Positions 25,001 to 58,000 of a stretch of DNA of 64,000 nucleotides are shown piece by piece. The DNA comes from Flaccisagitta enflata (taxonomy: Eukaryota). The DNA lies in NCBI GenBank assembly GCA_965153355.1, contig OZ231126.1, positions 9,858,001 to 9,922,000 of the forward strand, given 5' to 3'. The stretch's first letter is position 1. Each line of letters starts with the position of its first letter. The notes beneath the pieces are model-generated. The model saw only the letters and a program-made list of their open reading frames with translations. It did not search any database and had not been told where the DNA came from. A program made the translations under genes and the position numbers.

Positions 25001-28000
25001 AAGTGTCCACCGTTGCCGTTGAGGAGGATGAAGCATCACCAACGCCAGAAGAAGCAGCTGTCGCCGCGGCTGCCGCTACTGCCGCGGCTGCGTCGGCGGC
25101 GACCGAGTCTTTGGCGGCGGCGATGAGGGCGTCTACGTTGTCTTTCTCCTCTTTTTCCGCACTTTTATTCTCTTCACTAGCATCCTCGCCTTCAGCGCCT
25201 GCTTTAAAACGAGATCGTTTTCAGCATCAGTCAGATGTCAGTGTATCATCTCGAATCATTCTTATACAGAGCATAGCAAACTGCTAGTATTAGACCGTTG
25301 ATTATAATCATTGATTGATTCGTCGATAATGGTTGTACCCAAGATGCAAATTGGTTGGTTAGCCGATCGCGAGAATTATTGTGGCCTGGATAGCCAATAG
25401 ATCAGAGGGGGCTGTCTGAGACAGTTGATTTCATTGAAGAAAGCCTGCAGTACAAAATAGTTCTTCCTTACGCCATTACCGTTGCTACAGTAAAAAAACG
25501 CGGCACTGGTTTATGATCCAGCTCTCATTTTTTTCATCGGGTAAAAAACACTTTTTCCTTTTACCTTAGTAGTAGATGTGCAGAAGTATGCTGATCTAAA
25601 TTAGCCAAGATACATTATCTTTTCCTTTTCACGCGATATTTATGCCAGCGACGAAAACTCTGGCATGTCGGCTACATCGGAGGGCACGTCGCCAGCAATC
25701 ATCCCAAACGAATCCATCACCACCAACAAATCATTCATCAACGAGTCAACCATCGCAAAAGATGAATCGGTCACCGCGAATGCCTCTGACCGGAGAAAGT
25801 TCGAGCGTTGGATGACAGAGGCGGCGAAAATCAGTTTGACCGACTTGATGGATGTCGAGTTTGACAGCAAATCAATTTGGCTCGATGATTATCGATCCTT
25901 CGCCAGATGCGTCGACGACATGACTCGTACGTACAAAATCATGGAGTCAATTCACGAACAATCCAAGGAATACCATGTTGGAGAGTCACACGTGCAGCAG
26001 GAAGAATCGTCTACTTCGCCGTCTGCCATCGAGGAAGTCGTCGATTACCTCGTCTCGGGGGCAGAGAAAATAGTTTCGGAATCAAAGACCACAGGCTGGC
26101 AGACAGAGAATACCCGCTTTAAACCAGAATCATACGGATCAACGACGAAGTCTACAGATTTGTTTGCCGAGCCTGAATTGGGATCAAAGAAGGCGTTCTT
26201 GAAGGCCGCTTTTGATGAACGGTCCAGGTGCATGGATCAACTGTCCGAGAAGCTGGAACGCTCGGTCAAGTTGATGTTTAAGATGGAGACGGAAATTAAA
26301 TTATCCACTATATTCAAGAGAAATGAAATGATAAACGAATGGGTCAGGGGGGTCAGAGACCTAATCCGTGGCGAGAACTGGATGTCGACTGTGAAAGCCA
26401 TCAGAGCGAAGTCACCTTGTGTCAGAGGCGGTATTGATTGTGGTTGTAAAAATATTCAACGACTTTCCGACACGGAATCACTTATCAGCAGCTGTTACGG
26501 AAAAATAGCAAAAGAATTCGAATCATGCAAATCCTGGTTTGAAAGGGTCAACACAAATATTCGCAACGACACCCTCTTTCACGAGAGAGAAAACATACGC
26601 GAGGAAGCAGATGGAATCGCTGTTAACATGCGAGACAATATCGCTTCTATAGCCCAAAGTATATCGAAATACATCCGTACGTGCGAAAACTTCCTTTTGA
26701 AGCATCAGAGATTCTCCCAGTGGAATGCTTACAGCGACAAAGCGTTAAACGCAAGGCTAGATCACTTCTTTCGCGCCGATGAAGCGGAGTACGCACTTCT
26801 TACTGATGAGGAGAAAGACGCTCTGAGACCGTCGCGCGACGGCGTCATCGCCGATGCCAAGCGAATATACGCGCTAATCAAGTCAACCCATCAAGAAATA
26901 TCGAAGAAAATCTCCGATTTGACAATGTTAGGTGCTCATTATATGCTGTCTCTCCTTTAGCCATCGCGTTATATTCATTTGTCATCTCGCTGTCATTATG
27001 TCATTATTACCTTTGATAACTGTCGTTAGTCATGCTGATGATTATTCATTACCTGTCGTTCATTACTTTGTTCATAGGTCGTTCAGCAGTGACATACGTG
27101 TTTATGGAGCATACTTATACATTACTAAGACATTATTTACACACTGAGGTTAAATTTTTTTTCAGGGGGTTAAGGTAATTTTTTCGCATTTTTCTTCCCT
27201 TCTCAGGTACTGATTAATCCATGAAGTGGTTTCACGTACTAGAAACGATTCACCAAGTCTGTATTTGAGTGTATGCATCAAAATTTTCTAAAATAATCGC
27301 ATTTTTTTCTTTATTTCAGTCCAAAATGATGATAGATTATTGCTAAAAAATGTGTACAAATATGTAACACATAGAAATAAATAAATTTCTAGCCTATCTA
27401 GCTTCCAACAGATCAAAAAAGGCGTCTTACTATTTCTGTTGGTCTCTGAGAGAAAAATAAAAAAAAAATTACGGCGATATCTTCATTTCTACTTGAGATA
27501 TTCTTCTTGAAAGTTGGAAGTATCAACTACGCCATACAAGCTTTAATTGAGTCAACTCGATGCAACTAACTTTTTTTTTCTTCTGGGCATCATTCAGTGA
27601 TTTAAAACCGTTTTTCAATTGAGCTCCCTAGACCTGTGCCTTAATGAGCAAAAACAACCGTTGATTTTGTAGCAACCTTCGCAAAACATATTTTTTCACT
27701 TGCTTCAAGACTGACCCTATTTCCGCTTTTTTTAAGACGCTGTGTTCCATTTTGTCACATGAGCCAATATTGTGTCATATTCCGTGATTTGACATTCAAA
27801 GTTGATTTTTGCCTTTCATATATCTCGATTAGTAAGTTTTCTTCACTGCGAAAAGAGATAATAGAATCATTGAATCATAAAGTATCGAGAGGGCCACGTA
27901 GAACAATGCCCCTATTTCCGTTCTTTTTAAGACGATCGGCTGAAAATAAGCGTAAAAGGCCCATAGCTTCTGTAACGTACTTTAACTATATTTTAAGTGT

Positions 28001-55000: not shown

Positions 55001-58000
55001 AGAACGTCTATTACTTCGTATATCCTCATAAGAATTCTTCCTTCATTCGTCCAGATACATCATTATGATAGACGCTATTTATACTACGTGACCAGGGGAC
55101 ATCCCTATACTTTCCTCAAGGTACGCCCCCAACAACAAGGCGCAAAGTCCAGCGCTGCGCCTCTCATCGCGATATGTCTCAATTTCCGACTGCGAATGGG
55201 ATTCCTTGCGCCGACTGCTTGAAAGCTGATGATGCCATCATCGCCGAACTTTCCGCCCCGCGAAAAAGAACTGAGATAGAACTTCTCCTGTTTTTGCAGG
55301 GCGCACGAGAAAAGCTACCATGGATAAAGAGGTTCTGGTTCATGGAACATGCATCGGGCCATGTGGAGTTGGGCTCTTTTTTCGGAGAAATCAACGCCGC
55401 AACCGCAAAATTTGCCGACGCTCTGCCAATACTGGAGAAACGTCGACTTGCAACGATGAATGCGGTTCGCCAGCACGGTAATGGCTGTTCCGCCATACAA
55501 CAAGCGTTAGTAAATCCCCAGATGGATTTTAGTCGCGTGCACGCGACTCTACAACCCGCTTTGTCCGTCGGTCGGTCGGTCGCACTCTAATTTTTTTCAT
55601 GATTTTATTTCTTTGACCTCACTGCTCCTGCCCAAATGGTCTAGTGATCTCAAATATGGCCCCTGCCAACCCAAACGCGACTTCGGTAGCCGTGTATCCG
55701 GCCTTGTTCTTTAGTCACGTGCTACGCGACTACACCCCGCATTGTTGGTCCGTCGGTTGGTCCCTCGGTTGGTCCGTCTGTCGGTCACACTTTACTTTTT
55801 TGGGTTTTTGTTTTTTGTTTTTGCCTCACCACTCCTGCCCAAATGATCTGGTGACCTCAATCACAGCCCGCACGCGACTGGGGTAGCCGTTTATCAGGCC
55901 TTGTTCCAAATTAAGCCACGCATAAACACTTGTATTCGCAGAAACAAAGCAAAAGTTCATCCCTTCAGATCTAACTGCTTAGTTATACCGCGCTTCTACA
56001 TTTCTCTTTGCTGACAAATAGCCCAAGACTATCTCCGTCGGATCTTCATGTTTATTTTCCATGTCATGCGTAAACATTTCTCTTTGCAGATAAGAATCCT
56101 CAATCCATACGCCGTCGGTATTGCGCCGCCACCATTTGCACCAAGCGAGAATTGGCACCGAGGACATTCCGATGCTGCGTCCAATGTCAAGACGACGCGC
56201 TGTTTCCGCGAAATTTCTACTGCAGCGAAGAATGCTTCTCGGAAGACTGGAACCTCGTTCATCGAAAACTTCACGAGGCGAGGAAGCGGGAGGGTGTTGC
56301 AACGAAACGCAAGGCTTTACTACAGGTAGCGGAGGAGTGGCACTTAATACATTCTACATAATGCTGTTTATGATGACATATAACGCGTCAAATAAAATAT
56401 TTGACAATGCGATAGATCTGGCTTTTTTGATTCTTCAAAATTCTGTTTAAGACTTTAAGTCTAATTAACTTAAGTTTCATCTAATTTCAAGTTTGATAAA
56501 TACAAAAAGGTTAAAACCCCTGCCATGGTTCACTCCCGCTAACCACTACAGGAACACGCTCAGGGGACGAATGAAGATGATGAGGGGAAAGAAGAGAATC
56601 TCCGAATTTTCCTCGTGGAAGATAATTTGGACAGCGATGACGACGGCGAAGCAGCTGGAGCAGATCCCAACTGTCAAGAAGGACGACGAAGGCGACGACG
56701 CCGGAAATGCCACGCGTTTGATTGCAGCAGATCGGAGAGTCAAATCCCATTGGAAGATGACGCCATCGAAGAAAACAATAACAACAACAACCACGACGAC
56801 GACGAGATAAAAGCGCCCTTCCTTTGCTGCGATCAATGTCGTCTCGACGGCATTTCACCACGGGCATTCTACTGCAGTCAAGAGTGTTTCAAGAAAGATT
56901 GGGTGGCAGTCCATAAATTGTTTCACAAAATTAGGAGAAGCAAACTTCGAATGATTGAAGTCGAATAATGAATGTAGTGTTGTCTAAATTGGAATGATTG
57001 GGTGGCTGTTCCACAGAATCAGGAGGAAGAAGAAAACTTTGCGGGGAGGATAGCTTCAGCATTAAGGGTCAGAGAGACGAGAGGAAGATGAAGAGGAAGA
57101 TGAAGAGGATCATGAAGTAAAATTACGTTAGTTTTGATCATATCGAGTTTTGATTGAATTCGAATCCCCCTTCCACAAATTGAGATATTGTAATCATTGT
57201 GTGACAAAATTTTAATCCATTGAAGATGCCATAGAGAAGTTCTTCACGGGAGTAAAAGTTCAGATGTGTTGTCTTGTTATTATTCCGCGCGACAGATAAT
57301 ATAATTTAGTGGATCGAATATCAGAATAATCTACCCTTGTCTAGTTGTCTTTATCCGTAACTATAATCATTGTAATCCGTTTGTCCTTAACTATCGACCT
57401 TTTTCCTTATCCATTTATCTGTCACCCTCTCAACCTTTGTCTCAACTTTTGTCCAAAACGCTAACATCCTTCATCCGTATCCATAGCTACACTAGCCTTG
57501 GTCCTTATCCGTTTGTCCAATGTCCACATGTCTACCTACCTTTGTCTTTATCCATTTGTCGACATCTTCTGAGTTGTTCTTCAAAGTCTTCTTCCGATTC
57601 TCCGATGCCCAACTTGTCGTACCAATATTGCGCGGGTCCGTATCTCCACGGCGCCACTTGTCTTTTCTCGGCGCCATTCCTCTTGTCGGCGCCGCTACCG
57701 TCTCCGGCGCCGCCGTCTCTTCCGCCGCCTCCGGGCTCGTACGTCATTGGGCGACAAAAGCTGTCCATTTGATTGGGACCAATTTCTTCCGGTTTGGCTT
57801 TGGGCAAGTGAAGTTTGACGTTGCACCAAGCGTATGGATCTTCTTCCGCCCCTTCCGCGCCCGCGTCTGCACCCCCTTCTCCTGAGGCGGCAGCTTCGTC
57901 CGTGGCTTCATCTTCTTTCTTCTTGTTGGATCTTTTGCGGTAATTTCTAGCGCCTTTCCAGACCGATGGTTTATGGACGGGTTTGAATAGACGACCGAAA

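Follow-up and report, generated by a model that had tools for sequence, protein, structure and literature searches.

Within the window (the whole stretch of DNA analyzed here, 64,000 nt), an open reading frame on the plus strand breaks off at a 28-kb mobile element, and an open frame resumes on its far side. Are the two halves one gene, and what has the insertion done to it? We conclude, with a probability of about 0.8, that the locus holds a real, unnamed protein-coding gene of a marine eukaryote, with 750 residues on the plus strand, cut in two by a 28-kb composite retrotransposon in the assembled haplotype.

One reading frame is restored across the insertion

The frame starts at ATG 25665, the first in-frame ATG downstream of a stop ending at 25604 (sequence reading), and runs for 420 codons to 26924, before the LTR. 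Codon 421 is split: its first base is A26925, and its last two are GG55139-55140, beyond the insertion. The frame is then open across 55141-55476. Coding exon 1 consists of a 5' part (25665..26925), which encodes the helical body including a conserved N-terminal motif, and a 3' part (55139..55477), which extends from the last two bases of codon 421 to the first base of codon 534. The 3' part encodes the end of the helical body and is matched by records 17 and 18 of the RNA run X5, a marine metatranscriptome. Intron 1 (55478..56089, 612 nt, GT..AG) joins donor GT 55478 to acceptor AG|56090 in phase 1. Exon 2 (56090..56325) encodes finger 1 at 56122-56274 and is supported by X5 records 20-23, Pfam and relatives. 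Intron 2 (56326..56551, 226 nt, GT..AG) joins donor GT 56326 to acceptor AG|56552 in phase 0. Exon 3 (56552..56968), supported by Pfam and relatives, encodes finger 2 at 56708-56926 and ends with the stop TAA 56966-56968. Both introns were placed by sequence reading, and all these features lie on the plus strand. A very abundant short repeat was also seen at about 55435-55935, in intron 1.

When the four stretches were joined by script, they gave a coding sequence of 2,253 nt (750 residues plus stop) with no internal stop. A reading of the locus made earlier from the sequence alone (the sequence-only reading) had proposed this 750-residue product without other lesions, resuming in frame at 55139 across an ACAA target site duplication (TSD) and followed by two phase-correct exons that each encode a C6H2 finger. 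Its coordinates all hold, and the splice sites and Pfam zf-C6H2 agree with it, but its exon count changes: the first two pieces are one exon, and the intact gene has three coding exons of 1,600, 236, and 417 nt. The join also rebuilds a conserved stretch, K-K-I-S..., four residues, K-V-x-R-C.

The gene lies antisense within a large intron of TAF1 (putatively intron 3 in the sequence-only reading), as minus-strand TAF1 domains on both sides of it show. Domain searches placed the TBP-binding domain in ORF 59179-61107, DUF3591 in ORFs from 17889-18677 down to 15214-15789, the zinc knuckle in ORF 11435-12454, and bromodomains in ORFs 10697-11044 and 2959-3267, all on the minus strand. In X1, a DNA run with the same organism label, contig depth was 139-174 across five gene bins (55268-55434, 55936-56603) and 97-175 across three TAF1-side bins (57272-57772). 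The depth over the gene is at the level of the TAF1-side bins, which indicates a single-copy gene.

Relatives are collinear past the insertion point

We searched 1,835,955,588 representative proteins exhaustively with exon 1 (phmmer) and obtained nine matches at the cut-off of E <= 0.001. Three unnamed environmental proteins, P0004 (564 aa), P0005 (577 aa), and P0007 (486 aa), are collinear with the reconstructed protein past the insertion point and both introns, contain both fingers, and have the same C-terminus. They show that this is one gene, not two. BLASTP of the reconstructed protein, a check proposed with the sequence-only reading and run here piece by piece, matched the exon 1 part before the insert to P0005 residues 1-226 (E 1e-37) and the part after it to P0005 residues 232-334 (64% identical, E 4e-40); P0004 and P0007 likewise span the join. 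With these homologues, the sequence-only reading passes the refuting check that was set for it. The finger 1 exon matched P0004 residues 360-439 (74% identical, E 1e-38), and the last exon matched residues 440-564 (61% identical, E 4e-43). Judged by these alignments, the similarity is more than chance, because all four stretches match consecutive parts of the same relatives with E values of 1e-37 to 4e-43.

P0005 and P0004 are encoded on contigs of 1,977 nt and 2,290 nt, respectively. These contigs are probably transcripts, because they are too short for introns of the size found here. With the top 8,000 candidates scored in each case, a homologue search with P0005 returned P0005 and P0004 alone, and a search with profile A3 returned P0007 alone. 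A pattern search for related loci with an alignment of the three relatives (A2) matched 257 stretches, one of which was confirmed (L001). It is on an A+T-rich contig and its match covers finger residues 345-406 alone (44%); we read it as an unrelated MYND-type protein.

The insertion is a Ty3/gypsy-like element that was itself invaded

The composite insertion (26926..55134, 28,209 bp, plus strand; repeat and domain searches) comprises an LTR retrotransposon of ~15.2 kb and two nested transposons. Sequence reading placed the ACAA TSD at 26922..26925 on the left and at 55135..55138 on the right, and it is exactly at the right copy that the matches of an X2 DNA contig and an X5 RNA contig begin. 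The LTR ends are TG... at 26926 and ...CA at 55134. By LTR comparison, the 5' LTR lies in two parts (26926..27147 and 35363..35568) and the 3' LTR of 428 bp at 54707..55134, all on the plus strand. The pair is identical at 420/428 positions, with eight differences (divergence 1.9%). A PBS-like TGG lies two bases past the 5' LTR, and a purine tract precedes the 3' LTR.

Three long ORFs follow on the plus strand. ORF1 (41306..43612, 768 aa) is in the gag position and ORF3 (50769..54467, 1,232 aa) in the env position, both without a Pfam match. Between them, pol (43477..48948, 1,823 aa) encodes protease, reverse transcriptase (RT), RNase H, and integrase (Pfam: gag-asp_proteas at residues 92-184, RVT_1 at 469-627, RT_RNaseH at 715-821, and Integrase_H2C2 plus rve at 955-1123), with a weak FLYWCH match at its C-terminus. 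Because of the TG..CA LTRs, the short TSD, and this domain order, the element is an LTR retrotransposon of Ty3/gypsy-like type.

Nested insertion 1 (27148..35358, 8,211 bp) interrupts the 5' LTR and is flanked by CTGA at 27144-27147 and 35359-35362. It is A+T-rich with many short repeats, and the three of its ORFs that were scanned (115-127 aa) had no Pfam match. Nested insertion 2 (36535..41302, 4,768 bp) has terminal inverted repeats of ~570 nt and TAATC on both flanks. On this anatomy, a same-orientation LTR retrotransposon inserted in exon 1 after codon 420, duplicating ACAA, and the two nested transposons entered it later. The sequence-only reading had judged that the knockout looks recent. 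The absence of other lesions in the gene agrees with this, but the insertion is recent only in a relative sense, because the LTRs already differ and two transposons landed inside later.

The assembled allele most likely is null or truncated

Translation of the assembled sequence agreed with the earlier prediction that the frame reads 11 codons into the LTR and stops at 26960, losing both fingers. The LTR-encoded codons and the stop (26958-26960) occupy 26926..26960 on the plus strand and end a product of 431 residues. The allele would be limited to this helical fragment. It is most likely a null or truncated allele, because only the 431-residue fragment without fingers can be made. Splicing out of the insert was considered (AG|GT 26931/26932 to AG 55138-55139) and rejected: by hand reading this join is out of frame, and supporting reads were none.

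Contigs with an empty-site signature occur in marine DNA and RNA

Marine DNA and RNA contain near-identical sequence whose match stops precisely at the terminus of the LTR. Record 11 of X2, a DNA run from a marine community sample, is a contig of 194 nt whose match begins at 55135, after 81 unmatched letters. X5 record 17 (RNA, 330 nt) also matches from 55135 and is preceded by 150 unmatched letters. A break at precisely this point is the mark that an empty site leaves, and we infer the unmatched letters to be the end of exon 1. In X5, depth was zero over the LTR bins 54600-55100, and every coding part had contigs. The match of record 20 begins at 56092, after 35 unmatched letters, a splice signature.

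The contigs with the empty-site signature share 96-97% identity with the window and derive from mixed marine samples, so their source could be a sister species or population. Compared with the window, X5 record 17 has 7 differences in 180 positions; of the six listed, five are synonymous and one is not. Records 21 and 22 have no differences in 88 and 130 nt, and the exon contigs of records 20 and 23 are 6-10% different. Exon 1 words were contained at 0.24 in X5, at 0.20 in the RNA run X6, and at only 0.63 in X1. Within the gene, X1 differed from the window at 5 letters in 369, and 6/7 of its variants in the acidic linker were non-synonymous. None of the X1 contigs listed crosses either junction. 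The polyA RNA run labeled with the organism (X13, ~6 in 100 of the run read) gave 992 reads, of which 991 fit only partly, on low-complexity stretches; the TAF1 exons were at zero depth as well.

The insertion is likely polymorphic within the species, but this falls short of proof, because the identity of the contigs to the window is only 96-97% and their unmatched letters were assigned to exon 1 by inference. The suggestion of polymorphism in the sequence-only reading thus gains contigs with the expected signature and is partly borne out, although these contigs may come from another species. Its proposed search for spliced RNA reads came out similarly: a splice signature near 56090 was obtained from X5, but the organism-labeled X13 had no usable reads.

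Alternative readings of the locus

An unlikely but weighty alternative accepts the gene as real and holds that the insertion is fixed in the species. The locus would then be a dead relic, and the intact, transcribed marine copies would belong to sister species or populations. The imperfect identity of X2 record 11 and X5 record 17 fits this reading, as do the more divergent X5 records 20 and 23, the lack of usable reads in the organism's own RNA run, and the LTR differences and later transposons, which indicate that the insertion is not young. However, over 2,253 coding nucleotides a relic would have escaped any second lesion despite 1.9% LTR divergence. X5 records 21 and 22 are identical to the window, and allelic divergence in the organism itself is high, with the same-label X1 holding only part of the exon 1 words.

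Two further readings are far less probable. That the halves are separate genes or chance ORFs with a coincidental in-frame join is barely credible: its sole support is that no read joining them was seen directly, and it fails on the three relatives that pass the join without a gap. The conserved stretch restored by the join and the canonical TSD and LTR ends also stand against it. That the ORF belongs to a mobile element or stems from one, and is not a host gene, is very improbable as well. All known members of the family are unnamed environmental sequences and transposons crowd the locus, but X1 depth is at the single-copy level, and the gene has two spliceosomal introns. All exons lack transposase, RT, and integrase domains (Pfam), and repeat searches across 24000-58000 found the gene without flanking terminal repeats.

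A helical body is followed by two C6H2 fingers

The intact protein begins with a Ser/Thr-rich N-terminus, followed by an all-helical body of ~500 residues, finger 1, an acidic linker with an Arg run, finger 2, a basic tail, and a C-terminal EVE. The first feature of exon 3 is a conserved acidic motif of 13 residues (56606-56644), after which the Arg run follows. By sequence reading, each finger has six Cys and two His ligands, with H-x3-H as the last pair. Finger 1 reads C545-x4-C550-x12-C563-x2-C566-x11-C578-x3-C582-x8-H591-x3-H595. Finger 2 reads C665-x4-C670, a 34-residue loop, and C705-x2-C708-x11-C720-x3-C724-x8-H733-x3-H737. None of the eight ligand positions in either finger varies among the three relatives, and all are also present in the window.

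Finger 2 scored 31.2 bits with Pfam zf-C6H2 (PF15801), above the curated cut-off of 30 bits. Finger 1 scored 21.8 bits (E 2e-4) and the relatives' fingers 24.2-28.2 bits, below this cut-off; a precomputed domain table assigns PF15801 to P0004 and P0005. In each finger, zf-C6H2 outscores zf-MYND (PF01753). A MYND assignment was rejected, with zf-MYND scores of 22.2 and 14.6 bits against a cut-off of 22.7 bits and a last ligand that is His, not Cys. Sequence matches of the fingers in the Protein Data Bank were to four distinct MetAP1 finger sequences only (7sek at E 0.005, the other three at ~0.05). This sequence evidence assigns the fingers to the C6H2 type of MetAP1, as had been proposed. The protein is not a methionine aminopeptidase 1 (M24A): Peptidase_M24 was found neither in the four coding pieces at E <= 1 nor in the three relatives at E <= 0.1 (Pfam).

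The helical body matched no known family in Pfam. The predicted model of exon 1 is all-helical with a mean pLDDT of 61, and this low-confidence model had no match in the PDB at E <= 0.001 (Foldseek; best 0.57). The AlphaFold2 model of P0005 has a mean pLDDT of 47.8, with values <50 across both fingers. ESM Atlas searches gave weak helical look-alikes for exon 1 (recognition 1255, scores up to 0.91) and generic MYND clusters at 0.83 or below for the finger half of P0005; neither was taken as a lead. A complex prediction with two copies of residues 170-420 scored 0.00, which speaks neither for nor against self-association. A narrow literature search by domain name returned a paper on a rice MetAP for zf-C6H2 and no non-peptidase protein with two such fingers. 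The earlier view that a helical body plus two fingers without a peptidase is an unfamiliar architecture is borne out by these searches, which turned it up in no more than a few unnamed environmental sequences of marine origin.

Nothing known is overturned: disruption of genes by TEs, antisense genes nested within others, and adaptor fingers of the MYND-like kind all have precedents. The locus adds an undescribed architecture, in which a body without a family is followed by a pair of MetAP1-type C6H2 fingers and a peptidase is lacking. It also shows that frame, TSD, and homologues suffice to recover a gene which annotators would miss, with 28 kb between its halves. Should the insertion segregate in the species, it would be a ready-made natural knockout in a little-known gene family for probing the role of the protein.

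A possible docking function and comparison with known systems

Tentatively, and at somewhat less than even odds, we propose by analogy that the protein is a scaffold. Each MetAP1/MYND-like finger would serve as a docking site for a short peptide motif with proline, such as PxLxP, and the helical body would act as a spacer or in self-association; the truncated allele would lose all docking. The Cys6His2 finger of METAP1 is reported to bind ZNG1 through a CPxLxP motif and beta-NAC through its C-terminus (PMC11672702). The MetAP1 finger (PF15801; PDB 7sek, 4iu6, 8p2k, 9fq0) resembles those described here in its Cys6His2 ligands, its H-x3-H end, and its core FYCSxECF..W..H...H. Unlike MetAP1, the present gene has no M24 peptidase domain and has two fingers, not one. 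These are C-terminal, behind the ~500-residue helical body, and in finger 2 an acidic, Asn-rich loop of 34 residues separates the first ligand pair from the second. A more specific proposal is quite improbable: the protein, as a relative of the MetAP1 docking module that lacks a peptidase, might use the two fingers on its helical scaffold to compete with or bridge the usual docking partners of MetAP1 (beta-NAC with its C-terminus at the ribosome exit, and the zinc chaperone ZNG1 with its CPxLxP motif) as a lineage-specific regulator of co-translational N-terminal processing, with the retrotransposon allele as a loss-of-function variant segregating in the wild.

The best analogy for a possible mode of action is the coiled-coil plus MYND adaptors of the BS69/ZMYND11 type, in which a helical region likewise stands before a finger of the cross-brace kind, a fold that would be shared here. 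In these adaptors a coiled coil is reported to unite two MYND domains to bind two PXLXP motifs, so that reading is bivalent (PMC4742278). In contrast, bivalency in the present protein would lie within one chain, PHD, bromo, and PWWP reader domains are absent, and the fingers end in H-x3-H, whereas MYND fingers end in H-x3-C.

The allele itself resembles null alleles caused by LTR retrotransposons (Ty3/gypsy-like) in coding exons, with its 428-bp LTRs, TG..CA ends, 4-bp TSD, and pol order PR-RT-RH-IN. It differs from them in that the element is unusually large, has three long open ORFs, and was itself hit by two transposons, whereas the gene that it interrupts is otherwise intact.

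Reconstruction of the interrupted gene

On the + strand, the frame opened by the ATG at 25665 comprises 420 codons, up to the LTR repeat that starts with TG at 26926; the second LTR copy closes with CA at 55134. ACAA flanks the insert on both sides (26922-26925 and 55135-55138). Once the insert and one ACAA were removed, codon 421 consisted of A26925 and GG55139-55140, and the frame was open to 55476. The intron 1 donor GT at 55478 (+) was read directly, as was the intron 2 donor GT at 56326 (+). Between them lies coding exon 2 (56090-56325, +), entered in phase 1 after ...TTTGCAG; coding exon 3 (56552-56968, +) begins in phase 0 and has TAA as its stop. 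The four stretches, joined by script, gave 2,253 nt, a frame of 750 residues closed by a stop codon and free of internal stops. As assembled, the allele reads 11 LTR codons and stops at 26958-26960. Re-reading of the frame, ACAA, splice sites, and joined coding sequence showed that all coordinates of the sequence-only reading were correct, including the exact join across the ACAA TSD, the two phase-correct finger exons, and the stop at 26960 after 11 LTR codons. The ATG at 25665 is supported as the start because P0006, a short relative, has its initial Met aligned with that of the window protein.

The domains of TAF1 stand in order on the minus strand: the TBP-binding domain (ORF 59179-61107), DUF3591 (several ORFs, from 17889-18677 down to 15214-15789), the zinc knuckle (ORF 11435-12454), and the bromodomains (ORFs 10697-11044 and 2959-3267). 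Thus, the finger gene sits within a large intron of TAF1, in antisense orientation, as had been proposed. A 417-codon open frame at 5862-7115 (+), inside the TAF1 region and with no Pfam match, may be a second nested gene or what is left of a transposon. A C2H2 zinc-finger run at 63397-63999 (-; zf-H2C2_2, E 8.6e-55), open at the window end, belongs to a different gene, located upstream of TAF1. Downstream of the last bromodomain, an ORF at 3-710 (-) runs off the window start and resembles the PH domain weakly, below the cut-off (E 6.8e-4).

Homologues spanning the insertion point

When the 420-residue first part was compared by phmmer with all 1,835,955,588 representative proteins, nine had E <= 0.001 (three at <= 1e-10, one at <= 1e-30). 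Three of them, P0004 (564 aa), P0005 (577 aa), and P0007 (486 aa), extend past the break. In a MAFFT alignment they are collinear with the joined window protein over the insertion point and both intron positions, and all four proteins have both fingers and the C-terminus in common. By BLASTP, consecutive pieces matched the same relatives: the exon 1 part before the insert matched P0005 residues 1-226 (E 1e-37), the part behind it P0005 232-334 (64% identity, E 4e-40), the first finger exon P0004 360-439 (74%, E 1e-38), and the last exon P0004 440-564 (61%, E 4e-43). The check for spanning homologues had been set in advance, and both it and the piecewise BLASTP bear out the earlier claim that the two halves are one gene.

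The remaining six matches (P0006 and P0008-P0012) are N-terminal or body fragments of 72-285 aa that share a motif around D-Y-x-x-Y-A-x-C-V-D-D-M-T-R-x-Y-x-x-M-E-S. The contigs bearing P0005 and P0004 (1,977 and 2,290 nt; sources ENA and JGI) are probably transcripts, since they are too short for introns like those in the window. Word-indexed protein searches with P0005 and with the relatives' profile yielded no further relatives among the best 8,000 candidates scored. Within the searches run here, the family is small and made up of unnamed environmental sequences only. The sole outcome of a scan of JGI metagenome contigs was a MYND-type protein, judged unrelated to the family.

Public reads and a probable empty site

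Exon 1 words were found in DNA runs labelled organism A (share 0.63 in X1, 0.35 in X3), in marine metagenomes (0.35 in X2; others too), and in marine metatranscriptomes (0.24 in X5, 0.20 in X6). We compared the region 54600-59600 with X13, X1, X5, and X2. X13, a polyA RNA run of organism A of which about 6 in 100 were read, was uninformative: 991 of 992 reads were partial fits confined to low-complexity sequence, with zero depth on the TAF1 exons too.

The X5 RNA contigs had pieces on every coding part and zero depth in the LTR bins 54600-55100. Record 17 of this run (330 nt) matches 55135-55314, with its leading 150 letters unmatched, and the X2 DNA contig record 11 (194 nt) aligns with 55135-55245 behind 81 unmatched letters. 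Thus, one DNA and one RNA contig independently diverge from the window precisely where the LTR ends, and we infer that they carry an uninterrupted exon 1. These contigs, 96-97% identical to the window, are candidates for the empty-site sequences that the sequence-only reading had called for. Record 18 of X5 extends to 55473, which is compatible with the donor at 55478, and record 20 starts to match at 56092 behind 35 unmatched letters, compatible with a splice. These ends fit the predicted junction 55477/56090. Record 24 spans 56909-57166. Some X5 exon contigs are identical to the window (records 21 and 22), others differ from it by 6-10% (records 20 and 23); the sample therefore contains several populations or species. 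Record 17 has seven differences from the window; among those listed, five are synonymous and one is Q474K, which brings back the residue found in P0005. These substitutions would be compatible with purifying selection, on a tiny count.

In X1, the depth on the gene (139-174; bins 55268-55434 and 55936-56603) is at single-copy level, with 97-175 in the TAF1-side bins 57272-57772. Differences from the window occur inside the gene (e.g., 5 letters in 369), and none of the X1 contigs listed crosses a junction. Part of the depth (102.6 of 300.7) has an in-frame 3-nt deletion at 56699; the 2-nt indels, in contrast, are in the LTR (55106) and intron 2 (56454). Over 55435-55935, intron 1 holds a short repeat starting TTAGTCGCGTGCACGCGACTCTAC, followed by GTCC/GTCG tetranucleotide runs, which also occurs at 29157, 32843, and 38446; its 24-nt core pattern has four copies within the window with up to 3 mismatches allowed. 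Its summed contig depth reaches millions in X1 and hundred-thousands in X2, which makes it a SINE- or MITE-like element present in extreme abundance in this genome.

The inserted element

The insert totals 28,209 bp. Its 3' LTR lies at 54707-55134, and its 5' LTR is in two parts (26926-27147 and 35363-35568), split by an 8,211-bp insertion with CTGA flanks. Within this insertion, 8-14-nt tandem units overlap in a dense array at 33343-33666. The stretch from the 5' LTR to the first ORF contains a second nested element (36535-41302; 4,768 bp), which has inverted ends of about 570 nt and is flanked on each side by TAATC. Without the nested insertions, the LTR element measures about 15.2 kb and carries three long, uninterrupted ORFs. 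The 1,823-aa pol (43477-48948) contains protease, RT, RNase H, and integrase in order (Pfam). Behind the integrase core its frame stays open for about 700 residues, where the sole assignment is a weak FLYWCH zinc-finger match (residues 1620-1665, E 0.0014, below the cut-off), about 500 residues past the core. The 768-aa (41306-43612) and 1,232-aa (50769-54467) ORFs had no Pfam match even at E <= 0.1; the latter sits where an env-like gene would be. TGG two bases past the 5' LTR and a purine run ahead of the 3' LTR may represent a primer-binding site and a polypurine tract.

The LTR pair is identical at 420 of 428 positions, without gaps. The insertion has thus been in place long enough for its LTRs to diverge by 1.9% and for two more insertions to land inside. 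The knockout had been described as looking recent, which applies only in a relative sense: no second lesion is present in the broken gene.

Helical body and fingers

The first 533 residues had no Pfam match above noise. AlphaFold2 predicted long helices only for exon 1 (10-row alignment; mean pLDDT 61.1, pTM 0.48), at 40-55, 58-62, 66-108, 119-141, 175-180, and 183-235, with six more in 237-419. Foldseek of this model against the PDB gave no match at E <= 0.001, and the ESM Atlas gave weak helical look-alikes only. In the P0005 model (mean pLDDT 47.8), helices extend to about residue 331, and the other parts are not trustworthy. A complex prediction with two copies of body residues 170-420 scored 0.00, which counts neither way on self-association.

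Both fingers score higher with zf-C6H2 than with zf-MYND (finger 2, 31.2 vs 22.2 bits; finger 1, 21.8 vs 14.6 bits). Finger 1 reads C545-x4-C550-x12-C563-x2-C566-x11-C578-x3-C582-x8-H591-x3-H595; finger 2 adds to this pattern a 34-residue acidic, Asn-rich loop behind the first Cys pair (C665, C670). The ligand columns of both are invariant across P0004, P0005, and P0007. In the Protein Data Bank, a profile of these relatives matched four distinct sequences and no others, each an N-terminal finger of MetAP1 (7sek, E 0.005; 9fq0, 4iu6, and 8p2k, about 0.05). Pfam found no peptidase domain in the window coding pieces or the three relatives. The proposed pair of MetAP1-like C6H2 fingers without a peptidase is thus upheld by ligands and domain content, but only finger 2 passes the curated zf-C6H2 cut-off.

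Between the fingers, an invariant L-D-S-E/D-D-D motif stands behind a hydrophobic I/V-F-L-V stretch, a succession that resembles a SUMO-interaction motif, and a run of 5-7 Arg resembles a nuclear targeting signal. Together, the acidic motif and the Arg run suggest a nuclear location of the protein. The window protein and its three relatives all end in -EVE or -DVE (IEVE, EEVE, YEVE, YDVE), preceded by a basic H-K-I/V-R-R-x-K-L-R stretch. This conservation suggests that the free C-terminus may itself be a docking motif.

Proposed function and comparison with known proteins

One report describes binding of the METAP1 Cys6His2 cross-brace finger to a CPxLxP motif of ZNG1 and its requirement for ribosome association via the beta-NAC C-terminus (PMC11672702); another describes two MYND domains brought together by a coiled coil and binding two PXLXP motifs (PMC4742278). 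This type of finger docks peptides. By analogy, we tentatively propose, with a probability of about 40%, that the protein is a scaffold in which fingers 1 and 2 would each dock one short proline-containing motif and the helical body would supply spacing or self-association. Under the scaffold model, the truncated allele would be null or, at worst, an interfering fragment, since it retains the greater part of the body but neither finger.

Searches with Pfam, phmmer, word indices, PDB, ESM Atlas, and the literature found no named family with MetAP1-type fingers in this architecture, in agreement with the earlier view that the layout is unfamiliar. As kinds of event, the truncation by insertion, the nesting of one gene in another, and the retrotransposon itself are all ordinary. 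The window protein differs from MetAPs in having no peptidase and is thus not a MetAP; compared with MYND proteins, it departs from both the ligand set and the Pfam cut-off and is thus not MYND.
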